Source: a virus (lineage: Duplodnaviria; Heunggongvirae; Uroviricota; Caudoviricetes). Taken from it: a stretch of DNA of 35,493 nucleotides. The translations under genes and the position numbers were made by a program. The notes under the pieces are model-generated. The model was given only the letters and a program-made list of their open reading frames with translations. It searched no databases and was not told the DNA's origin. Below, piece by piece: positions 4,619 through 27,146 of the stretch; within the stretch, counting starts at the first letter, position 1, and each line of letters opens with the position of its first letter. The DNA lies in the IMG/VR virus record IMGVR_UViG_2529293246_000006; one strand, given 5' to 3'.

Positions 4619-6388
4619 TCAGTTACCGTTAACGATGCTGATAACGCTGTTGCGGGCCGGAGTGGTCAGGGTAACCATCACCTCATCCAGCGCGGCTTCA
4701 GGTACGCCATCCGGGTACTGCGCCGTTAACTGGCGGTAATGTTCCGGCGTCCAGATATGGCCGTTAGCGCCAAACTTCTCGCGCAGGGCTTTCGCCGCCT
4801 CCACATGGGTCAGCGGACGCTGCTCAATACGCGGCCCGCGCACGTCTGAAGCCTGACCGCGCTTCGGCATATAGGCCGGAAGCGTGGTGTCGTCGATATG
4901 TTTGTACGGGTCAAGTCGCCCGCCGAACGGCAGCGCCTTCGCCTTGCGTGCAGCAGCTGCATCGGTGGCGTTATCGGTGCCCGTAACCAGCTCTTCGATT
5001 TCTTTTGCCGCCGTCTGCGCCGGGGTCTCCGGCAGGGCTTTGTAGTTTTCGCCAAATACCGCCGCGTTTTCGGCAAAGCCGAACTCGTTCTTTCTGACCT
5101 CCTCGACCAGGAAGAACGTCTCGTGACCGTCCTCACCGGTCAGCACCACCTGCGCCACATCGCTGCGCCACGGGTTACGGGTAATCATCAGTTTTTCGCC
5201 GACCAGTACGCCCGGTACCGTCGAAACGTCAAACTCATTGCCCCGGAACGAGACGCGCAGTTTTGGTGTGACCTTACGGAGTTCCGGTGCGGCCACCGCC
5301 AGTTCGCGGCAAACCTCAACGGATGGCGCTTTTTTCAGCTGGTCAGCAGTAATCTTCAGCCAGATATCCGTGCGGGTTTTACCGTGGCGGCTGTGGACCG
5401 CCGTGGCGTTAAAGTGGCTGCGCCATTTCACCGCCAGTGCGTTCAGTTCGTCCAGGCTATGAACCGGCTGGAATTTGAGACCCGGCTCCAGTTTACGTTC
5501 GATAATGTCACGGGCCTTTTCCACCTGCCCGGTGGCGCGGGCGTTATGCGGCTTGTGCGCTATCAGATTGATGCCCAGCGAGCGGCACATGTTTTTCGTC
5601 ATGCCAGCGGTGTTCGCCGAACCGGGATCAAGGTAGAGTATTTTCGGCACGCCGTGCAGCACGTCCGCGCCGCCGCGCTCCTGCATGGCGTTGATAAGCA
5701 CAGAACAGAGGTTCTCACCAGATTCCGCACCCATCACGTACTCAACGTAAATCCAGCCGCTGGTATGGTCGGTAATCTCGTAACTCCACACGCGGTCACT
5801 GGCGATGCGGGCGATGTTGGCAGGCTTGTTCTTGTAGAACTTCGAGCTGTCCATCACCTGCAACCCTTTATGGCCGTTGCTCAGGTAGTAAAGCGTACAA
5901 AGTGAGGCATCAATCTCCCAGACGTGATTGGGATGCAGGCTGGCCATCTCGGACGACGGGGCCGGTGCGTCAAGCTGTTCCGGGTGCAGACCATAGTTCC
6001 GCAGGGCGCGGCTGATGGTATCCTCGGACAGCGGGAAAAACTCGCCTGTGGCCTCGTCCGTTCTGCCAGCAGTGATAAAGCCGTTTGACCGCAGGGTCTC
6101 CACCGCATCCGCGATGGAATACAGGCGCTTACCGTTCTTACGGGTGGCCTCGCGCAGCGTGGCAGATATCAGCGCGGCTTCGTCGCGGCTCAGGGCACTG
6201 CGCCCGGCATCGGCGCGTTTTTTACGTTTGTCAGTCACTGATACCTCCTTCAGCTTGCGCAGCAGGGTGGCGCGGGAAATGCCCAGTTCGGCGCAGGCGG
6301 CATCATATATCGCACCACGCTTACCATGCCCCGCGTCACGTGCCGCGCGGGCAACATAAACCAGTCGTTCAGTCAGGGCGGCACTCAT
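4619..6388 (-). CDS. DDE transposase (Mu/BcepMu-type, integrase-core fold)
   Basis: 589 aa. N-terminal HTH region, candidate catalytic Asp residues in HVWEIDAS and YLDPGSAN, followed by a conserved Glu region. Sits just upstream of the ATPase as in transposable phages. Confidence 0.85.
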   Translation of the reverse strand: MSAALTERLVYVARAARDAGHGKRGAIYDAACAELGISRATLLRKLKEVSVTDKRKKRADAGRSALSRDEAALISATLREATRKNGKRLYSIADAVETLRSNGFITAGRTDEATGEFFPLSEDTISRALRNYGLHPEQLDAPAPSSEMASLHPNHVWEIDASLCTLYYLSNGHKGLQVMDSSKFYKNKPANIARIASDRVWSYEITDHTSGWIYVEYVMGAESGENLCSVLINAMQERGGADVLHGVPKILYLDPGSANTAGMTKNMCRSLGINLIAHKPHNARATGQVEKARDIIERKLEPGLKFQPVHSLDELNALAVKWRSHFNATAVHSRHGKTRTDIWLKITADQLKKAPSVEVCRELAVAAPELRKVTPKLRVSFRGNEFDVSTVPGVLVGEKLMITRNPWRSDVAQVVLTGEDGHETFFLVEEVRKNEFGFAENAAVFGENYKALPETPAQTAAKEIEELVTGTDNATDAAAARKAKALPFGGRLDPYKHIDDTTLPAYMPKRGQASDVRGPRIEQRPLTHVEAAKALREKFGANGHIWTPEHYRQLTAQYPDGVPEAALDEVMVTLTTPARNSVISIVNGN

Positions 6389-6391
6389 GGG

Positions 6392-7300
6392 TTATGCCTC
6401 CTGCCCGTTAATCTCTGGCGTCGGGTCAGTCAGCCATGAAGGGGCGGCGTTGCCTGTCGGCTCGTCCGGCAGGTCAAATGTGGAGCGTAGGCTACGCGCG
6501 GTGCTTTCCAACTGGCAGACCAGACCGGCCATAAAGTCTCTGGGGGTATCAATCATATTTTCAGCACAGTATGCGCACAGGGTCTCAAAGGCGCTGGACA
6601 GTCGAACGGCGATGGCAGATTCCGCCTCAACCGCTAACGCTGTAACTTCCGCACGCAGCTTCTTCACCTCTTCGTCAGGCTTGGGCGGCTGGATACGGGA
6701 TTTCTTCTCCAGTTTTGTGGAGAGCGAGTCGATTTTTTCGTTTTTGTCGGCAAGCACGCGCTGTTGTGCTGCGTTGGTTTCGCGGGCTTCACGTAGGGCT
6801 TGACGCAATTCTCTACAGCTCATGCGGTCGACATCATCTAGTTTCAGACCCGCTACAGTGCCACCATCAGCCAGTTCAGCGAGAGATTCATCATCTTCAG
6901 TCATCAATTCAAAAAGTTTGGATTTACCCAAATGTGCCAACGTTGGCACATTTGATTTCAGTGCGGGGGATAAGTATTTAGTCGATGCTTGCATCATCCG
7001 CACAGAAGTTCGGTATGGTAAGCCCAACTCATTTTCAAGAATGTTAATAAATTCCCCGTGCGGCTCATTTTCTTTAAGAATTACAAGGCGCTTACCTGCT
7101 TCCAGCATCGCCTCAGCACTCTGTGCCATATAAAACCGTGTTTCGTGAACAATACGATCACGTTCATACGGCAGACCATCACCGAACTGCTGCATGATTT
7201 CGAGGCGATGTTCGGTCATGGCATTAAGACTAACGTTGAGGCCATCACTCAGCGGAGCATCTTCCATTAGTTCAACTGGTTGTGATTTTGTGCGTCCCAT
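6392..7300 (-). CDS. hypothetical early protein (302 aa, coiled-coil rich)
   Basis: ORF with an AAGGAG Shine-Dalgarno before the ATG at 7300. Central region is Glu/Lys/Ala-rich and looks coiled-coil. No family recognised. Confidence 0.5.
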   Translation of the reverse strand: MGRTKSQPVELMEDAPLSDGLNVSLNAMTEHRLEIMQQFGDGLPYERDRIVHETRFYMAQSAEAMLEAGKRLVILKENEPHGEFINILENELGLPYRTSVRMMQASTKYLSPALKSNVPTLAHLGKSKLFELMTEDDESLAELADGGTVAGLKLDDVDRMSCRELRQALREARETNAAQQRVLADKNEKIDSLSTKLEKKSRIQPPKPDEEVKKLRAEVTALAVEAESAIAVRLSSAFETLCAYCAENMIDTPRDFMAGLVCQLESTARSLRSTFDLPDEPTGNAAPSWLTDPTPEINGQEA

Positions 7301-7309
7301 TTCAACTCC

Positions 7310-7615
7310 TTAGCGACTACCAGCCATAACACGCTGGTTGATTTCATTAATACGATCCTGCGCCCGCGCCATTTCGGTACTGTGCGCCATGGCGATTTGT
7401 AAGAGCTGGACTCCAGGGGCAAAACGCCCGTTATCCAGTTTCAGGGCCAGTCCTTCTTCGATAAGGGTATTGAGCGCCCGATTGATATTCGCCGGGGACT
7501 CGCCCAGAGCTGACGCCAGCTCGCCGTTAGAAACACCGTTCAGAGCGTGACCGCGTAAAGCCTTAAGGACACGCAAAATACGGGTACCTGAGCTTGATGT
7601 ATTTGGTTTACTCAT
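7310..7615 (-). CDS. winged-HTH transcriptional regulator (IclR/MarR-like N-domain)
   Basis: 101 aa. RILRVLKALRGHALNGVSNGELASALGESPANINRALNTLIEEGL looks like an HTH. Its start overlaps the ner stop (ATGA). Confidence 0.5.
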   Translation of the reverse strand: MSKPNTSSSGTRILRVLKALRGHALNGVSNGELASALGESPANINRALNTLIEEGLALKLDNGRFAPGVQLLQIAMAHSTEMARAQDRINEINQRVMAGSR

Positions 7616-7836
7616 GACGCCTCCTTGAGGATGCCGGGGGTAACTTCTTTGCCTATTGCGACCGAAAGGTCTCGCAAAATCCGATAAGTCAAACGACCGC
7701 GTGGAAGTTCGCTTTTGCCTGCCCAGCGGCTGACAGCCTGGGTGACTGTTCGTGGCTCATAGCCCGCGTTAAGCGCGAACTGGCGCAAGCTACTGCCTCT
7801 TTCAACCAGCCGTGCCCGAACTTGTTGTTTGTTCAT
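7612..7836 (-). CDS. ner: Ner-like DNA-binding protein
   Basis: 74 aa from the ATG at 7836. ...LRQFALNAGYEPRTVTQAVSR... resembles the Ner/Nlp family. First gene of the minus-strand early operon, divergent from the repressor. Confidence 0.7.
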   Translation of the reverse strand: MNKQQVRARLVERGSSLRQFALNAGYEPRTVTQAVSRWAGKSELPRGRLTYRILRDLSVAIGKEVTPGILKEAS

Positions 7837-7924
7837 ATGCACCGTGTTCCTGTTGGGTTATGATGTACTCTATTGGGTCTATTGTACGCACCCGAACGGG
7901 TATGTCAAATTGAGATATGTTCAA
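7837..7924. promoter_or_regulatory. divergent ner/repressor intergenic control region (putative operators and promoters)
   Basis: 88-bp spacer between divergent start codons. Contains TGTTGGGTTA and TATTGGGTCT direct repeats and a CCCGAACGGG inverted repeat. Function inferred from position only. Confidence 0.4.
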
Positions 7925-8335
7925 ATGAGTATAAAAGAGAGATTGCGCGAAGCGATGGATGCTAAGAGTCTGACAATTAAGGCATTGTCAGAGTTGTCAA
8001 AAATTCCATATCGCTCACTTCAAAACTATCTGCGTGGAGAGAGAGAACCTAATGCAGAGGCTCTTGTTGCGCTAAGCACCCATTTGAACATATCAATAGA
8101 TTGGCTACTTACTGGTAAAGGGGAAGCTGTTGGGGTAGAGAAAGCACAGCCAGCTAATCAGGAGCAGCATTTCAACCAGTCTGATCTGAAGTTATTGGAG
8201 CTGCTCAACCAACTGGAGCCAGAGGTGCGAAAAGATTTGCTGCGAGGCGCTGAGGAAAAACAGCGAATGATTGATATGGAAAAACAGCTTAAGGAGCTGT
8301 CCGCAGCGTTCGAAAGATTAAAAAATACGGGTTAA
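7925..8335 (+). CDS. XRE-family HTH repressor (putative prophage maintenance repressor)
   Basis: ORF 7829..8335 trimmed to the ATG at 7925 (MSIKERLREAMDAKSLTIKALSELSKIPYRSLQNYL...). Classic XRE HTH with a C-terminal helical domain. Divergent from ner. Confidence 0.7.
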   Translation: MSIKERLREAMDAKSLTIKALSELSKIPYRSLQNYLRGEREPNAEALVALSTHLNISIDWLLTGKGEAVGVEKAQPANQEQHFNQSDLKLLELLNQLEPEVRKDLLRGAEEKQRMIDMEKQLKELSAAFERLKNTG

Positions 8336-8370
8336 TCTGTTCCTATTAAGAACATTAGAGGTATAAGGAC

Positions 8371-8904
8371 ATGACTATGCGCAAATTATTTTTACCGTTG
8401 ATATTTGTTTTATCTGGGTGTGGAGATAATACCGATCCTGCTGATACGTCCACCACAGCTAAGGAGCACGCGGTTTTTAGCGTTGAAACAGATAATCCGG
8501 TTGTAAATCGCGAATTACCGTTTATTCGCCAACAACTCCCCGGCCTGGATAAGTACGCGGACAGTTTTGAAAAAGTCGAAGTATCCGAGGATAGCGAACG
8601 TCCGGTGACAACGGTGCAGTTTCATATTAAAGACGAAAATAATATTCCAAGTGACTACATAGCCTCTGGTCATAATTGTTATTTGTTCATATCAAATAAT
8701 GCCCACGAAGTGAAAATATCTAAATCAGCATGTCAGGCTGTTTTTTTCGATAAAACGGATGTTCCTGGTGGAGACCTGACCGTGAAACTTGATAAGGAAA
8801 AAGTTCCTATGACAGATGATGGTAAGACCCCGCGAGCAGGTTGTTTGAAAGCTTATTCACCAGAGCCAGATAATGATTATTGGACTTGTCCAAGGCAGGA
8901 TTAA
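8371..8904 (+). CDS. lipoprotein of unknown function (moron; candidate superinfection-exclusion protein)
   Basis: 177 aa. N-terminus MTMRKLFLPLIFVLSGCGDN is a lipoprotein signal peptide with an LSGC lipobox. The gene and flanks are visibly AT-richer than neighbouring phage genes. Confidence 0.65.
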   Translation: MTMRKLFLPLIFVLSGCGDNTDPADTSTTAKEHAVFSVETDNPVVNRELPFIRQQLPGLDKYADSFEKVEVSEDSERPVTTVQFHIKDENNIPSDYIASGHNCYLFISNNAHEVKISKSACQAVFFDKTDVPGGDLTVKLDKEKVPMTDDGKTPRAGCLKAYSPEPDNDYWTCPRQD

Positions 8905-8911
8905 ATGTTTA

Positions 8912-8934
8912 GGTGGTGCTGCAGATGCACCACC
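8912..8934. terminator. hairpin between convergent lipoprotein and dam genes (putative bidirectional terminator)
   Basis: GGTGGTGC (8912-8919) / GCACCACC (8927-8934) stem with a 7-nt loop, flanked by A/T-rich runs. Lies between the stop at 8904 (+) and the stop at 8952 (-). Confidence 0.45.
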
Positions 8935-8951
8935 ACCTTTAACTACCTCTT

Positions 8952-9722
8952 TCAAAAATTACAAATTACCAGCTCTTTCTTCGGGCTGGGTTTGCCTGTT
9001 ACCTTAAGGTTGTAGCTGATATCAACCGACTGCATGTTCAGACCGTTGAATACCTGCCGCATTTCCGGGATATCGTTCACTGATATAATCATCTTCCCTT
9101 TGATCCTTCGCGCTAAATCTGCCATGTGATCATAGTTTTCCAGCCCGAACTCCACACCATAGCCTTCCGTTCCCCAGTACGGTGGGTCACAGTAGAACAG
9201 CGTATGCGGGCGATCATATCGCTCTATGCACTGGTGCCAGTCCAGATGCTCTATCAGCGTTCTCGACAGGCGCAGGTGTGCCATCGACAGTTCTTCCTCA
9301 ATACGCAGCAAATTGAAGCGCGGCGCACTGGTTGTAGAGGTACCGAATGTGTGATCGGCGACCTTGCCGCCAAATGCCTGTTTCTGCAGGTAGTAGAACC
9401 GGGCCGCCCGCTGAATGTCGGTGAGCGTTTCTTCCGGCGTATCCTGCAACCATTTGTAAATCTGACGGCTGACCAGCGCCCATTTGAACTGGCGAATAAA
9501 TTCTTCCAGATGATGCTTGACCACCCGATAGAGGTTCACCAGTTCCCCGTTGATATCGTTAATGACTTCGGTCTTGCTGGGAGTCTTTAGGAAATAGAGC
9601 GCAGCTGCCCCGCAGAACGGCTCCACATAGCAGGTATGGGCCGGAAACAATGGTAAAATATGCTTCGCCAGACGACGTTTACCGCCAATCCATGGGACGA
9701 TGGGTAAAGATTGTTCTTTCAT
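8952..9722 (-). CDS. dam: DNA adenine methyltransferase (Dam-like, N6-adenine D12 class)
   Basis: ORF 8952..9746 trimmed to the ATG at 9722 (MKEQSLPIVPWIGGKRRL...). FCGAA (motif I) and the DPPY catalytic motif (YCDPPYWGTEGYG). Opposite strand to its neighbours. Confidence 0.85.
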   Translation of the reverse strand: MKEQSLPIVPWIGGKRRLAKHILPLFPAHTCYVEPFCGAAALYFLKTPSKTEVINDINGELVNLYRVVKHHLEEFIRQFKWALVSRQIYKWLQDTPEETLTDIQRAARFYYLQKQAFGGKVADHTFGTSTTSAPRFNLLRIEEELSMAHLRLSRTLIEHLDWHQCIERYDRPHTLFYCDPPYWGTEGYGVEFGLENYDHMADLARRIKGKMIISVNDIPEMRQVFNGLNMQSVDISYNLKVTGKPSPKKELVICNF

Positions 9723-9769
9723 TATCCGTAAGCCTTTTGCAATCAATGAAAATATGGCAGGCTAGTCTG

Positions 9770-9781
9770 GTCTCGCGAGAC
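9770..9781. promoter_or_regulatory. perfect 12-bp palindrome GTCTCGCGAGAC upstream of dam
   Basis: Seen directly in the dam/holin divergent intergenic region, about 50 bp upstream of the dam start. Candidate operator; function unknown. Confidence 0.3.
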
Positions 9782-9969
9782 TGACTGAACCCTGGTCGGC
9801 TCACAGTGCATACCTGTGGGTTGATGACCAGCCTGGTGTTACCGCACCGGGCTGGTCGTTCTTTCAAAGCCATCATGCGGTTCACGTCTGCATCCTCACT
9901 ATTAACGCTGTTTAAAATCCCTTTCCCCGACCATTTGTGATGCTGTCTCCACTACACAAGGAGACGCTC

Positions 9970-10320
9970 ATGAAAAACCTGAAAAAATTCATTCCCCCTG
10001 TTAAAAAGCCACGTCTCAGCGGCTGGCTGCTGACCGCTGTGCTGCTGCTCGGCACCATCGGTCTGGTATCGCCCCAGCAGCTGCCGGTGGTTGTCTACAA
10101 GCTATCACTCATCACGCTGGCGGCAGTATTGGGCTACTGGCTTGACCGTTCGCTTTTCCCCAAAGCCCGTCCCGGTCAGTACCTGAAGCATGATGACAGG
10201 CTGATGGCTGATGGTCGCTTCCCTGTCCAGACTGGCCTTCACCTGGTCTTTTCTGCTGCGCTAATCCGCCGTGCGCTGATTGTTGCTGCAGTCTGTCTGG
10301 CCGTAGCGATGGGGCTTTAA
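9970..10320 (+). CDS. putative holin (three predicted TM segments)
   Basis: ORF 9937..10320 trimmed to the ATG at 9970, preceded by an AAGGAG Shine-Dalgarno. Three hydrophobic stretches. Immediately precedes the endolysin. Confidence 0.5.
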   Translation: MKNLKKFIPPVKKPRLSGWLLTAVLLLGTIGLVSPQQLPVVVYKLSLITLAAVLGYWLDRSLFPKARPGQYLKHDDRLMADGRFPVQTGLHLVFSAALIRRALIVAAVCLAVAMGL

Positions 10321-11057
10321 TGATGACCCTCTATATGTACTGGCCTCAGGTTGTCTGGGCCGTGCTGGTACTGCTGGGGCTGGGCATCGAACTGGCCCGC
10401 TACGGGCAGGCCCGAACGGGTAAGCACAGTTTCTGGTGGCAGCTCTTTGGTTCAGCAACGGTAGCCTGGCTGCTCTGGTGTGGCGGCTTCTTCAGTCAGG
10501 CCCGCGCTGCCCAGCCACCGCAGACCGCGCTGCAGTATCGCGACGATGTGATCCGTAATGCCCGGCTTGAATGGGGAATGTCTGCGCCGGTGGCCGACTT
10601 CGCCGCGCAGCTGCATCAGGAAAGCGGCTGGCGACCTGATGCGGTCTCGCCGGTTGGCGCTCAGGGACTGGCGCAGTTTATGCCCACCACCGCTGACTGG
10701 ATAAGTCAGCTGATGCCGGGGCTTAACAGCCGTGAACCGTTTAATCCGTCTTGGGCCATCCGGGCGCTGGTCAGCTATGACCGCTGGCTGTGGCAACGAG
10801 TCAGCGCCGTCAATGACTGCGAGCGTATGGCCATGACGCTGTCAGGCTATAACGGTGGTCTGGGCTGGGTACAGCGGGACAAACGGCTGGCCTCGCAGCA
10901 GGGGCTGGACAGCACCCGCTGGTTTGGTCATGTCGCCACGGTGAATGCCGGACGCAGCACTGCCAACTGGCGGGAGAACCGTCATTATCCGCAGCGCATC
11001 CTGCACGAACTGGCCCCGCGTTATCTCACCTGGGGAGGCGGCAGCTGTGTGGACTAA
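10320..11057 (+). CDS. endolysin, lytic transglycosylase (SLT domain) with hydrophobic N-terminal segment
   Basis: 245 aa. Contains ...LHQESGWRPDAVSPVGAQGLAQFMPTTADW..., resembling the SLT catalytic region. The hydrophobic N-terminus suggests a signal-anchor (SAR-type) endolysin. Confidence 0.75.
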   Translation: MMTLYMYWPQVVWAVLVLLGLGIELARYGQARTGKHSFWWQLFGSATVAWLLWCGGFFSQARAAQPPQTALQYRDDVIRNARLEWGMSAPVADFAAQLHQESGWRPDAVSPVGAQGLAQFMPTTADWISQLMPGLNSREPFNPSWAIRALVSYDRWLWQRVSAVNDCERMAMTLSGYNGGLGWVQRDKRLASQQGLDSTRWFGHVATVNAGRSTANWRENRHYPQRILHELAPRYLTWGGGSCVD

Positions 11058-11700
11058 CCTGCTAAAAAATCTGCCGTGGCGCAGTCTGCTGCTGGCGGTG
11101 GTCATAAATGCTTTTCTGATTGGGCTTTATTACCTGGGCTACAAAAGCGGGCATGAAAACGCCACGCGCGACGGCGATAAGGCGGTCAGTGAGTTGCAGT
11201 CAGCATTCGACACGTACAAAACGGAGCAGGCAACGCTTGAGAACGCTGCGTTGCGGGCTTGGGCGAAACGGTATCAGGAACAGGTAGCCGCCGGGCAGCA
11301 GGCTGAAGCCAGTTACCTTGAGCAGATTGCTCAACTGGAGAGCCAGAACAAACAACTACAGGGGCAAATTAACGATGTCACACAGCGCTGGATTGATGAA
11401 AAAGGTAAGAGCCATCCCATTGAGTGCGTGTTTACTCGCGGTTTCGTGCGCCAGTACAACGCCGCGCTCGGATATGACAACGCATCCGTCGACACCGGTC
11501 ATTCAGACGCAACTGCCGCCGCTGGCACCGGCACTGGCGCAGCGTCCGGGCAACCTGAAGCCGCTGACGCCTGGCTACGCAACTCAGGCGTCTCCCAGCG
11601 TGATGTCCTCGCCAACATCATCGACAACGCGAAGCAGTGCCGCATCTGGCGCAGCCAGATAAACGGGATGCTGGACGAACGGGAAGGATTACAGAAATGA
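11047..11700 (+). CDS. Rz-like inner-membrane spanin (i-spanin)
   Basis: ORF 10945..11700 trimmed to the GTG at 11047, preceded by a GGGGAGG Shine-Dalgarno. One N-terminal TM (LLLAVVINAFLIGLYYLGY) then a coiled-coil periplasmic domain. Start choice uncertain. Confidence 0.6.
   Translation: MWTNLLKNLPWRSLLLAVVINAFLIGLYYLGYKSGHENATRDGDKAVSELQSAFDTYKTEQATLENAALRAWAKRYQEQVAAGQQAEASYLEQIAQLESQNKQLQGQINDVTQRWIDEKGKSHPIECVFTRGFVRQYNAALGYDNASVDTGHSDATAAAGTGTGAASGQPEAADAWLRNSGVSQRDVLANIIDNAKQCRIWRSQINGMLDEREGLQK
11396..11662 (+). CDS. Rz1-like outer-membrane lipoprotein spanin (o-spanin), nested in Rz in the +1 frame
   Basis: MKKVRAIPLSACLLAVSCAS lipoprotein signal followed by a Pro-rich mature peptide. 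Lies entirely inside the Rz ORF in a different frame. An alternative ATG exists at 11375. Confidence 0.6.
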   Translation: MKKVRAIPLSACLLAVSCASTTPRSDMTTHPSTPVIQTQLPPLAPALAQRPGNLKPLTPGYATQASPSVMSSPTSSTTRSSAASGAAR

Positions 11701-23796: not shown

Positions 23797-26262
23797 GTGG
23801 CCAGTGAATTTTCAGTCGGCGTCATTATTGGCGGCATTGTCGGAAGCAGCTTCCGCTCAGCCGTCAGTGGCACCCGACGCGCCCTAGATTCCCTGGGCGA
23901 TACATCGCGCCGCCTGCAGGAACGCCAGAATGCCTTAACTCGTGCAACTGAACGTTATGGCCAGTTAGGCTCTTCCCGGATGCAGCGCCTCAACAGCGAA
24001 CTGCTGCGGGTAAGCCGCACAATGGAGCAAATTGAACGCCAGCAGCGCCGTCTGTCAGCAGTATCAGCCACCAGTGACGCGCTGAAAGCTAACCGCATGG
24101 CGCTCTATGGCCAGGGAGCAGAGACTTATGGTATCGCCCGAACGCTGGGCGCACCGGTCATGGCCTCTGTCAAACAATATTCATCGTTTGAATCCCAGCT
24201 ACGCGATATCAGTGTCACCGGTGATCTGGATTCAAGGCAGGAACAGGCCATCGGTACTGCCATTCGTCGGGCATCCCTGCAGGTCAATCAGCTCCAGGAA
24301 TCTCTGTTGAGCGGCGTTGGTCAACTGGTTGCCGATGGCATGAATCCGCAGCAGGCAGCGACCTTTGCCGGGATGCTCGGTAAAGCGGCCACGGCCACCA
24401 AAGCAGATATGACTGACCTCGCAAAAATGACCTATGCCTTTAGCGATGCGCTGAAAATTACCGATGCCAAAGAGCTGGAGCAGGCGTTTGGGATTGCGGC
24501 AACCGGGGCCAAGCTAGGCTCGTTTGAGCTGAAGGATATGGCGAAAGCGTTACCCGGTATGGCCAAAGCCTTCGCTGCACGTGGTATTTACGGCAAAGAC
24601 GCCATAACCCAGATCGTAGCCAGTCTGGAAGTGGGTAAAGGCAGCGGCTCAGCGGAAGAGGCCGTCACCAATATGTCAAACTGGCTGGCGGCAATGGGAC
24701 GCGGAGATACCACGCAGAAATACGCTAAGGCTGGCGTGGATTACCAGGGATCAATGCAAAATTATGTAGCCCAGGGGTTCTCTCAATATGAAGCCTCCCT
24801 GATGATTGCCAACCGGTTTATCGACGGTAAAGGCAAGGCATTTGTGCAGCAATGGAAGGCGGCAGGCTCAAGAGGCGATCAGGAAGGCCAGCAGAGGCTG
24901 ATGGAGTCCTTCGGACTGGCGGAAGTCTTTACCGATATCCAGACCGTGAACCATCTACTGTCTATGCGTCAGGGCTGGGATAAGTACCAATCTAACAAGC
25001 AGGAAATGAACACTCCCTCTGCAATGTCTACGCTGGACAAGGATGCAGCGAAACAAAATGATACGCTCGAAGGACGTTGGCGCAGAACGCAGATTGGGTT
25101 TAACGACTCGGCCATTAGCATCGGAGAATCATTACGTCCGGCGTTGATCCAGCTGGGGGAAACATTCATCCCCTTAATGAACAGCGTTGGAAAATGGATT
25201 GCGGCTAATCCGCAACTCGTGAGCGGCACAATTCAAGTGATTGGCGCATTACTTGCGTTCAAGATGGCAACCATCGGCCTCAAGCTCGGGCTGAATCTCC
25301 TTATTTCACCTTTCGTCAACGTCTGGAAAAATGCCGTGCTCCTGCGGGCCAACTGGCTTCGCCTGACACTCGCGCTGGGTGAAGGCGGCAAACTTCGCTG
25401 GCTGGTGACCGGCTTCAGCGCCGTCGCCAGAGGAGCCAGAACACTGGGTGGTGTGCTGTCAGGTGGGCTGGTTCGCGGCATTATGATCGCCGGGCGTGCC
25501 GTTCTCTGGATTGGGCGGGCATTGCTGATGAATCCCATTGGTCTTGCTATCACCGCCGTCGCGGCGGCGGCTTATCTTATTTATCGTAACTGGGGGGCTG
25601 TCAGCAGTTGGTTCAAACAGCGCTGGGCTGACATTAAAGAGGCTTTTAACGGCGGTATCGTGGGGATTGGTAAACTGCTGATTAACTGGTCGCCGGTTGG
25701 TCTGCTCTATAAAGCCTTTGCGGCTGCGCTGAAATATCTCGGCGTTGATCTGCCCGCGAAGTTCACTGACTTCGGTGGCCATCTTATCGACGGGCTGATA
25801 AACGGCATCAAAAACAAATGGGAGTCGCTCAAAACCACCGTCACAGATATGGGTGACAGTGTCGGCGGCTGGTTCAAGGAAAAGCTGGGTATCCATTCGC
25901 CGAGCCGCGTGTTTATGGGCTTTGGTGACAACATCGCGCAGGGTGCCGCTATCGGCCTGCAGCGTACCACACCACTGGCAGCGCTCGCCGGACAACGCCT
26001 GGCAACAGAGATGACTCCCGATGTTCCCCGTATCCCGTCGCCGGAAATCATGGCTGCGGGATATTCAGGTCGTGGCGCAGTTGCAACTGGCGGCGGAACA
26101 TCTGGCGGTATCCAGGTCAGCTTTAATCCTCAGTTTTTCCTCAATGGCAAAGAAACCGCAGCGCCTGCCGGACTGACCGGCGCACTGAATATGAGCCTGC
26201 ATGAACTGGAGAAAATGCTGGAGCGTCTGCTGGCTCAGAAACAACGTCGGGGGTACGAATAA
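23797..26262 (+). CDS. tail tape measure protein
   Basis: 821 aa. Largely alpha-helical N-terminal two thirds, hydrophobic segments and a Gly-rich C-terminus. GTG start after an AGAGGA Shine-Dalgarno. Confidence 0.85.
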   Translation: MASEFSVGVIIGGIVGSSFRSAVSGTRRALDSLGDTSRRLQERQNALTRATERYGQLGSSRMQRLNSELLRVSRTMEQIERQQRRLSAVSATSDALKANRMALYGQGAETYGIARTLGAPVMASVKQYSSFESQLRDISVTGDLDSRQEQAIGTAIRRASLQVNQLQESLLSGVGQLVADGMNPQQAATFAGMLGKAATATKADMTDLAKMTYAFSDALKITDAKELEQAFGIAATGAKLGSFELKDMAKALPGMAKAFAARGIYGKDAITQIVASLEVGKGSGSAEEAVTNMSNWLAAMGRGDTTQKYAKAGVDYQGSMQNYVAQGFSQYEASLMIANRFIDGKGKAFVQQWKAAGSRGDQEGQQRLMESFGLAEVFTDIQTVNHLLSMRQGWDKYQSNKQEMNTPSAMSTLDKDAAKQNDTLEGRWRRTQIGFNDSAISIGESLRPALIQLGETFIPLMNSVGKWIAANPQLVSGTIQVIGALLAFKMATIGLKLGLNLLISPFVNVWKNAVLLRANWLRLTLALGEGGKLRWLVTGFSAVARGARTLGGVLSGGLVRGIMIAGRAVLWIGRALLMNPIGLAITAVAAAAYLIYRNWGAVSSWFKQRWADIKEAFNGGIVGIGKLLINWSPVGLLYKAFAAALKYLGVDLPAKFTDFGGHLIDGLINGIKNKWESLKTTVTDMGDSVGGWFKEKLGIHSPSRVFMGFGDNIAQGAAIGLQRTTPLAALAGQRLATEMTPDVPRIPSPEIMAAGYSGRGAVATGGGTSGGIQVSFNPQFFLNGKETAAPAGLTGALNMSLHELEKMLERLLAQKQRRGYE

Positions 26263-27146
26263 TGTTTGCGGTACTGGGTGATATTGAGTTTGAACTGATT
26301 ACCTACTGGGACGGCTTTGAGGCCACTTTCGGTGTCGATTATGCGGAACATGCCCGCATAGAGGGTAAGCCCGGCCTGCAGTTCGTCGGCGACAAGCTGG
26401 ACGAAATCCAGATAAGCCTGGTCTTCCATCAGCATTATTGTGTGCCCGACGTGGAGCTGGCGAGACTGAGAACGGCCATGAAAGCCCATCAGGCGCTGGC
26501 ACTGGTTTTCGGCAACGGTGACTATCGCGGCTGGTTTGTGATTACCGACGTGACCGCGACCAGCGAGCAGACCGACAGCACAGGCAACGTGCTGGCCGTC
26601 AATGCCACCGCATCTCTCCGGGAGTACATCGGCGACCCGAAGAACCCGCTACAGCCTCCTGCGATACGCACGCAGGTTCCCGGCGTCGGGGCGGTCTCCG
26701 GTGCCGTACCTTCTCCCTCCGGGGTGGCGCAGTACGTTCGCGACGGCGTCAACTATGCCAAACAGGCGCAGTCTGTTCTCCAGACCACCATCAGCGCCGT
26801 TCGGGTGGCGCAGAAAATGAAGGATAACCCCGCCGTCGCGCTGACCCGCGTGCCGGGGCTGATGAGCGGACTGGGCAACGTGTCCGGGGCGTTAGGCCAG
26901 AGCGTTCCGGCATTCAATGCGCTCTCTGAATCCATGCCTGATGCCATCAGTCTGGCCAGAGCCACCAGCGATGCGGCCACGTATGTACAACAGGCACAGT
27001 CTTCGCTGAGCGGCGTGGACGGCAGCAATATCGCGGCAGCGCTGGATGCCGTTTCCGGGCAGCTTAACTCCGCCAGCACCACCTTCACTCGTATGTCGCC
27101 GGGGTTAAGCACCATGGCAGCTAAAATTCTGGCGAGGAGTGTGTGA
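26262..27146 (+). CDS. tail protein (P2 gpU-like N-terminal domain with Ala/Ser-rich C-terminal extension)
   Basis: 294 aa immediately after the tape measure. The N-terminus (MFAVLGDIEFEL...QFVGDKLDEIQISL) resembles gpU. Family from memory. Confidence 0.5.
   Translation: MFAVLGDIEFELITYWDGFEATFGVDYAEHARIEGKPGLQFVGDKLDEIQISLVFHQHYCVPDVELARLRTAMKAHQALALVFGNGDYRGWFVITDVTATSEQTDSTGNVLAVNATASLREYIGDPKNPLQPPAIRTQVPGVGAVSGAVPSPSGVAQYVRDGVNYAKQAQSVLQTTISAVRVAQKMKDNPAVALTRVPGLMSGLGNVSGALGQSVPAFNALSESMPDAISLARATSDAATYVQQAQSSLSGVDGSNIAAALDAVSGQLNSASTTFTRMSPGLSTMAAKILARSV

Follow-up and report, generated by a model that had tools for sequence, protein, structure and literature searches.

Cor, encoded by phages phi80, N15, HK022 and T1, and Llp of phage T5 act in the cell envelope, where they inactivate the FhuA receptor and protect the cell that carries the phage. 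Both are much smaller (about 60–80 amino acids, aa) than the protein described here, and their genes adjoin tail-fibre or receptor-binding genes, not a repressor gene. The ltp gene of Streptococcus phage TP-J34 is located in the lysogeny module beside the repressor, and its product Ltp, like HK97 gp15, is expressed in the lysogen, is anchored in a membrane and blocks DNA entry after adsorption. Lambda Bor, Iss and other moron lipoproteins are accessory, compositionally distinct, prophage-expressed and lipid-anchored. Exclusion of phages by prophage lipoproteins has been shown experimentally in coliphages, and the gene position of these analogous lipoproteins is described in the same source (PMC11893012). 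Here, we analysed a lipoprotein gene in a 35,493-nucleotide stretch of viral DNA (Caudoviricetes; IMG/VR record IMGVR_UViG_2529293246_000006), referred to as the window, which is a BcepMu-like transposable (Mu-type) Escherichia coli prophage. The gene lies between the repressor gene and a dam methylase gene, and its sequence and surroundings make it very probable that it encodes a real, lysogen-expressed periplasmic accessory lipoprotein. Phage exclusion is the best supported of the roles considered for this lipoprotein, and we propose it tentatively and by analogy.

The window gene shares with the Cor and Llp genes its location on a phage and the lipobox signal peptide of its product. In position and logic, Ltp and HK97 gp15 offer the closest analogy, although Ltp belongs to a Gram-positive host and is built of helical repeat domains resembling a helix-turn-helix (HTH), and gp15 is an inner-membrane protein; no homology of the window protein to either was detected. 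Bor and Iss have the same accessory character but no homology to the window protein (the Pfam search was empty), and the window gene has no detected promoter of its own. The single family match is phrog_10002 (PHROGs v4, unknown function; E = 5.2e-14), the members of which fill the same repressor-proximal slot in BcepMu-like phages. Residues 27–134 of the window protein align with positions 215–321 of the 328 in that profile, which makes it a domain-level rather than a full-length member. Full-length phrog_10002 proteins (such as P0087) carry a cytoplasmic motif, a helical domain and a transmembrane helix before the domain, whereas the window protein has a lipoprotein signal peptide in place of these N-terminal parts, plus a Cys-loop tail. 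The literature yielded nothing specific on the accession, on BcepMu-like E. coli prophages or on Mu-like exclusion lipoproteins. The window protein is an uncharacterised addition to the known class of prophage accessory lipoproteins. Its open reading frame (ORF) is divided as follows, with model confidence given as the predicted local distance difference test (pLDDT):

8371–8904, plus strand: lipoprotein ORF, 177 aa, beginning MTMRKLFLPLIFVLSGC; stop codon at 8902–8904
8371–8418, plus strand: signal peptide, aa 1–16, MTMRKLFLPLIFVLSG, followed by Cys17
8419–8469, plus strand: predicted lipid-modified Cys17 and disordered, acidic, Thr-rich tether, aa 17–33 (pLDDT below 50 for residues 14–32)
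8470–8808, plus strand: core alpha/beta domain, aa ~34–146, pLDDT ~90 in the AlphaFold2 model; the unit common to the wider family
8809–8904, plus strand: C-terminal tail, aa 147–177, with the Cys pair C158/C173 in a predicted beta-hairpin (alignments and model)

The N-terminus shows the features of the lipoprotein class, namely a positive N-terminus, a hydrophobic core and a lipobox of the form [LVI][ASTVI][GAS]C. The lipobox L14-S15-G16-C17 is preceded by R4/K5 and the core (MTMRK-LFLPLIFV-LSGC); G16 and C17 are invariant among 20 homologues, and L14 is kept in at least 90% of the sequences. The textbook lipoprotein signal noted in a preliminary description of this DNA is thus confirmed. Position +2 is Gly and position +3 is Asp in the window protein, and this C-G-D pattern is the commonest in the family. 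RefSeq (PGAP) places the start at 8377 (MRK..., 175 aa, WP_001228474.1); in some relatives the first ATG is the sole option because their N-terminus reads MTIRK. The range originally marked, 8336–8940, comprises the ORF together with the 35-nt gap 3' of the repressor stop and the downstream hairpin.

In composition, the ORF stands apart from the window, with a GC content of 41.6% (GC at third codon positions, GC3, 34.8%) against 55.6%, and falls within the lowest 0.7% of all 534-nt segments. The gene had been described as AT-richer than its flanks, which holds against dam (50.3%), the early genes (51–60%) and the lysis genes (56–63%) but not against the repressor gene. The latter is also AT-rich (44.3%), and the AT-rich island therefore consists of the repressor and lipoprotein genes as a pair.

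The arrangement of this pair and its borders is the main argument for expression in the lysogen, and the relevant features are the following:

7925–8335, plus strand: repressor gene, 136-aa HTH protein of the XRE/CI type (Pfam HTH_3, 3.7e-11; Phage_CI_repr, 1.5e-05; PHROG repressor families)
8336–8370, plus strand: intergenic gap of 35 nt in the sequence, from repressor stop to lipoprotein start
8358–8361, plus strand: Shine-Dalgarno-like GAGG serving the ATG at 8371
8365–8369, plus strand: Shine-Dalgarno-like AAGGA serving the ATG at 8377
8911–8923 and 8926–8938: GC-rich hairpin (arms of 13 nt, loop of 2 nt) within the 47 nt that separate the stop codons of the lipoprotein gene and dam
8952–9746, minus strand: dam, D12-class N6-adenine methylase (RefSeq start 9722; MethyltransfD12, 1.2e-27; phrog_56, 2e-100)

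The repressor gene diverges from the leftward early operon and opens the immunity transcript, which runs rightward. The lipoprotein gene directly follows it on the same strand, as first reported, and a promoter and terminator scan found no sigma-70-like promoter or terminator in the gap between them. Conservation extends as one block from ~30 nt before the end of the repressor gene, across the gap and into the beginning of the lipoprotein gene, even in loci with a repressor protein just 46–49% identical, which fits a two-gene operon with recombination breakpoints inside the repressor gene. The lipoprotein gene appears to occupy second place in the repressor operon and to depend on the repressor's promoter, and such membership would mean that the lipoprotein is probably made in lysogens. 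On the other side, dam is convergent and marks the right boundary of the slot, with the rightward lysis and structural genes beyond it. The hairpin between the two stop codons, which the preliminary description had already assigned to both genes, begins 6 nt past the lipoprotein stop and is kept in close relatives. Its arms are 92% complementary, and its folding energy is -19.4 kcal/mol (z = -2.96; 0 of 200 shuffles fold as well). The stem is followed by just a TTT tract, a weak U-tract, and the terminator scan did not call the hairpin; a function as a bidirectional terminator is plausible.

The gap also contains a perfect palindrome, TGTTCC-TATTAA-GAACA (8338–8354), which follows the repressor stop, precedes the ribosome-binding site of the lipoprotein gene and is kept in relatives with other repressor alleles. 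Half-sites TGTTC and GAAC also occur within the divergent promoter region (7843–7924). By count, the palindrome pattern is no more frequent than expected by chance, and its identification as a LexA box was rejected.

Prediction of the structure of the mature domain had been suggested at the outset, and AlphaFold2, run with the family alignment, returned a confident alpha/beta domain. Residues 1–32 (signal peptide and tether) are disordered in the model and are followed by the domain at a pLDDT of ~90, in the order helix 43–55, short helix 58–61, four strands, helix 119–126, two strands and a C-terminal hairpin with strands 159–161 and 170–174. The core domain is recognised by the signature PGLxKY, IPxxYxxxGHxC and KxxC, in which C103 and C121 are invariant in the family. 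Of 60 diverse relatives, 40 have Cys at both position 56 and position 125, and most others have a hydrophobic pair there (as does the window protein, with Leu and Phe), a covariation that is expected for a dispensable disulfide. The cysteines lend support to a predicted oxidising, periplasmic location. The most-conserved residues are Gly, Pro, Cys and aromatic residues and thus mark a fold, with no obvious active site among them, while the surfaces vary around the conserved scaffold.

A word-indexed search recovered 37 close clusters, all from Enterobacterales where the source is named, and an exhaustive profile search recovered 185 representative clusters (50% identity), most of them of 130–160 aa. 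The identical 177-aa protein is present on at least 1000 contigs, where it is named just 'hypothetical protein' or 'Lipoprotein'. The named sources in this identical-protein cluster are E. coli, Salmonella, Klebsiella, Enterobacter, Cronobacter and Serratia, and such a distribution implies that the prophage or the module has recently spread across genera. A tblastn search of deposited phage genomes with three family members returned just two records, both of them the window's own phage. When 197 collected family sequences, close and distant, were sorted by their N-terminus, the following anchors were found:

98 of 197: lipobox
39 of 197: signal peptide or signal anchor
26 of 197: one or two transmembrane helices before the domain
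34 of 197: none recognisable, or a fragment

Family lipoproteins have Gly or Ser, and in some cases Asp, at position +2. Regardless of the membrane to which it is anchored, the domain evidently operates in the periplasm. Comparison of homologues with the window copy gave a ratio of nonsynonymous to synonymous substitution rates (dN/dS) of 0.12–0.16 at dS 0.5–0.9, indicating purifying selection that is 2–3 times more relaxed than in dam (0.03–0.06), the IclR-type gene (0.02–0.05) and the transposase (0.05–0.09). Judged by this conservation, the ORF is a real gene.

BcepMu-like transposable prophages are common in E. coli, with related sequence in at least 636 of 5,426 complete genomes, and 22 of the 5,426 carry the lipoprotein gene. 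In the ABU 83972-type prophage, which is common in E. coli, the slot is empty and 116 bp separate the repressor from dam. Viral contigs were additionally sampled via the conserved IclR-type gene; the slot is covered in 68 of them, holding a family member in 30 and none in 38. Each retrieved BcepMu-like locus with a family gene has it on the repressor's strand, between the immunity region and the dam/lysis genes, in one of these architectures:

175–177 aa: as in the window
143–147 aa: without the Cys-loop tail
311–320 aa: a ~150-aa helical insert, then the same tail
324–329 aa: transmembrane fusion, the full-length phrog_10002, in which the domain is the C-terminal periplasmic half

Position on the repressor side, foreign GC content and patchy presence are hallmarks of an accessory lysogenic-conversion gene. 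The gene has two of the three classical attributes of a moron, variable presence and foreign composition. As for the third, a promoter and terminator of its own, there is no sigma-70-like site upstream, and the hairpin downstream has the weak U-tract mentioned above. The label 'moron' given to the gene in the preliminary description can thus be retained for its patchy occurrence and base composition, but not in the sense of an autonomous unit with its own promoter.

In Serratia sp. Ag1 (locus L005), two paralogues stand in tandem: a 324-aa transmembrane fusion (4870–5844), which overlaps the repressor stop, and, after a 160-bp gap, a 175-aa lipoprotein (6004–6531) that is 74% identical to the window protein. 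Among distant family members, one adjoins the repressor of a P2-like prophage; a second, in a Mu-like phage, immediately precedes the endolysin gene as the only gene on the opposite strand; and a third and an Rhs toxin gene lie on opposite strands, ~2.4 kb apart. On a metagenome contig (L057, 5498–6423), the gene of a 140-aa member shares 4 nt with the end of a gene encoding a 168-aa SNase-domain protein. The island in which they lie includes MazE, PemK and Fic genes, and the two proteins could be an enzyme-partner pair.

The case for phage exclusion is indirect and is based on the location of the gene close to the immunity region, its accessory and mosaic behaviour, the recurrence of the family in three kinds of temperate phage and the coliphage precedent. 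Processing by signal peptidase II would yield a 161-residue protein held by Cys17 and a flexible linker of ~16 residues, which would place a compact, disulfide-stabilised alpha/beta domain in the periplasm. Co-transcription with the repressor would provide continuous production in lysogens, and the protein, as a lysogenic-conversion envelope protein, could block incoming phages at a periplasmic step with either a component of the envelope or a tail or ejection protein of the entering phage as its binding partner. If exclusion is true, the lipoprotein would represent a new and fairly widespread exclusion family (185 clusters) with a fold unseen in solved structures, and it would matter for host-range prediction in phage therapy and for the annotation of prophage cargo.

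Several observations weigh against this proposal. Exclusion is argued by analogy, and expression in the lysogen is read from gene order. The window protein resembles neither Cor nor Llp, nor any annotated exclusion or defence family, in sequence or fold, and the Cor/Llp-type comparison first drawn for it does not extend to homology. Pfam, NCBIfam and PADLOC (E up to 1) gave no match for it, and a Pfam scan of 60 diverse relatives was likewise empty, in line with the initial remark that no similarity could be assigned; nor was there a structural match or homology to any solved structure. The conserved Gly, Pro, Cys and aromatic residues do not seem to reveal a target. Because the anchor varies between lipid (+2 Gly, Ser or Asp) and transmembrane types, the site of action is unreadable from it. 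No gene-wide sign of positive selection or of an arms race was found in the lipoprotein gene. Lastly, family members also occur outside phages, in the Rhs island and in the toxin–antitoxin/Fic/SNase island.

The alternative that survives best, though we consider it somewhat unlikely, is a factor for envelope conversion or fitness that has nothing to do with phage entry. Such a protein could bind or inhibit a toxin or enzyme, with a type VI secretion system (T6SS) or Rhs effector, a bacteriocin, a nuclease or a lytic transglycosylase as example targets, or it could confer serum or stress resistance like lambda Bor. The distant members near the Rhs toxin gene and at the end of the SNase-domain gene favour such a role, and a small, periplasmic, disulfide-stabilised protein with a surface that varies around a scaffold resembles many immunity and inhibitor proteins.

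An improbable alternative is a role in adjusting the lysis–lysogeny switch: the domain would be the periplasmic part, either sensor or partner, of a membrane module linked to the repressor, and the window gene would be a free-standing, reduced version of this module. This alternative draws on relatives in the same slot, in which the domain forms the C-terminal periplasmic half of the 324–329 aa fusions and the fusion genes overlap or closely follow the repressor gene. The cytoplasmic N-terminus of these fusions starts GDVGNVVSGxV, and the repressor tail carries a like motif (IHGNVMGNVIKGNV). In L046-type loci, FHGxVGQxAGGxI is present at the repressor C-terminus and at the N-termini of the two flanking membrane proteins. 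The N-domain of the fusions is a generic helical bundle with weak matches to anti-repressor PHROGs (E ~4e-4). The motif, the helical cytoplasmic domain and the transmembrane helix are absent from the window protein and from the other window ORFs near the slot, and the window has none of the partner membrane proteins.

Related BcepMu-like phages thus share a short beta-type motif rich in G, V, N and Q between the C-terminal tail of the repressor and the N-terminus of the next protein, as seen at loci L046 (3979–5800), L005 (4376–5844), L010 (17–1441) and L008 (5426–5965). Its forms are FHGxVGQxAGGxIxN in the L046 type and GDVGNVVSGxV or IHGNVMGNVIKGNV in the Serratia type. The protein that opens with the motif is a membrane protein fused to, or encoded beside, the lipoprotein-family domain. 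In the L046 type, where the motif occurs three times, the two membrane proteins flank the lipoprotein gene, and the third copy opens a small protein with two transmembrane helices after it. The sharing of terminal motifs by adjacent genes has been used to find bacterial amyloid-like signalling pairs (bioRxiv 10.1101/2020.01.06.895854), and to read the motif of the related phages in the same manner is speculation. It is a long shot that the domain feeds periplasmic input into an undescribed device by which phages control lysogeny, with the window lipoprotein as a detached component or modulator. The fused architectures provide a tractable way into how the cell envelope and the phage repressor might be linked.

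A function as a lysis accessory protein, such as an outer-membrane spanin, an antiholin or an endolysin regulator, is very unlikely. The lysis cassette with its holin and SLT endolysin is ~1 kb away, outer-membrane spanins (o-spanins) are also lipoproteins, and a 312-aa relative has a very weak match, limited to the signal peptide, to a spanin PHROG (E = 0.1). The cassette is, however, complete without the lipoprotein gene:

9970–10320: holin
10320–11057: endolysin (SLT)
11047–11700: Rz-like spanin (phrog_1403, 1.9e-85)
11396–11662, +1 frame: Rz1 candidate, an ORF with a lipobox and a proline-rich body embedded in the Rz-like gene

A lysis role is largely rejected because all of these components are found elsewhere; in addition, the lipoprotein gene is in the repressor's transcription unit and parted from the lysis genes by the convergent dam, and more than half of the related phages are without it. 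Identity as an Rz1-type spanin was rejected, given that Rz holds its own embedded proline-rich lipobox ORF and the window protein is a folded domain. The embedded Rz1 candidate begins MKKVRAIPLSACLLAVSC; it is likely the o-spanin and is absent from the RefSeq annotation.

That the ORF is decaying or spurious and functionless deserves next to no credence: its AT-richness and its uninformative database names would suit such a reading, but the latter is effectively refuted by the conservation seen in dN/dS and in a Cys/Gly/Pro signature invariant across the 185 clusters, alongside a confident AlphaFold2 model and the improbability of a long ORF arising by chance in AT-rich DNA.

To the left of the repressor, the early operon of the window includes the following genes:

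7612–7842, minus strand: ner-like gene
7310–7615, minus strand: IclR-type HTH gene
6392–7300, minus strand: DUF3102 gene
4619–6388, minus strand: DDE transposase
left of the transposase, minus strand: ExeA-family (MuB-like) gene

An Rfam scan of 7000–10500 detected no RNA family. The 2 kb around the lipoprotein gene (7800–9800) are 99.9% identical to a stretch of the E. coli AW1.7 chromosome, where the prophage adjoins melR and stands beside a decarboxylase pseudogene annotated without its C-terminus. This Orn/Lys/Arg decarboxylase pseudogene abuts the left end of the prophage (AW1.7 chromosome, L001, 2621–4201, left of window position 1), and the loss of the C-terminus in the RefSeq annotation is expected from Mu-type transpositional insertion into the decarboxylase gene. 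A Mu-type early and immunity region with 98–100% protein identity is also held by the record OM835952.1, 'Klebsiella phage KP12 clone KP12_2' (Vequintavirinae), in which the family gene is located at 25970–26503 (locus L002). A prophage of the host is the probable origin of this segment, rather than the virulent phage after which the record is named.
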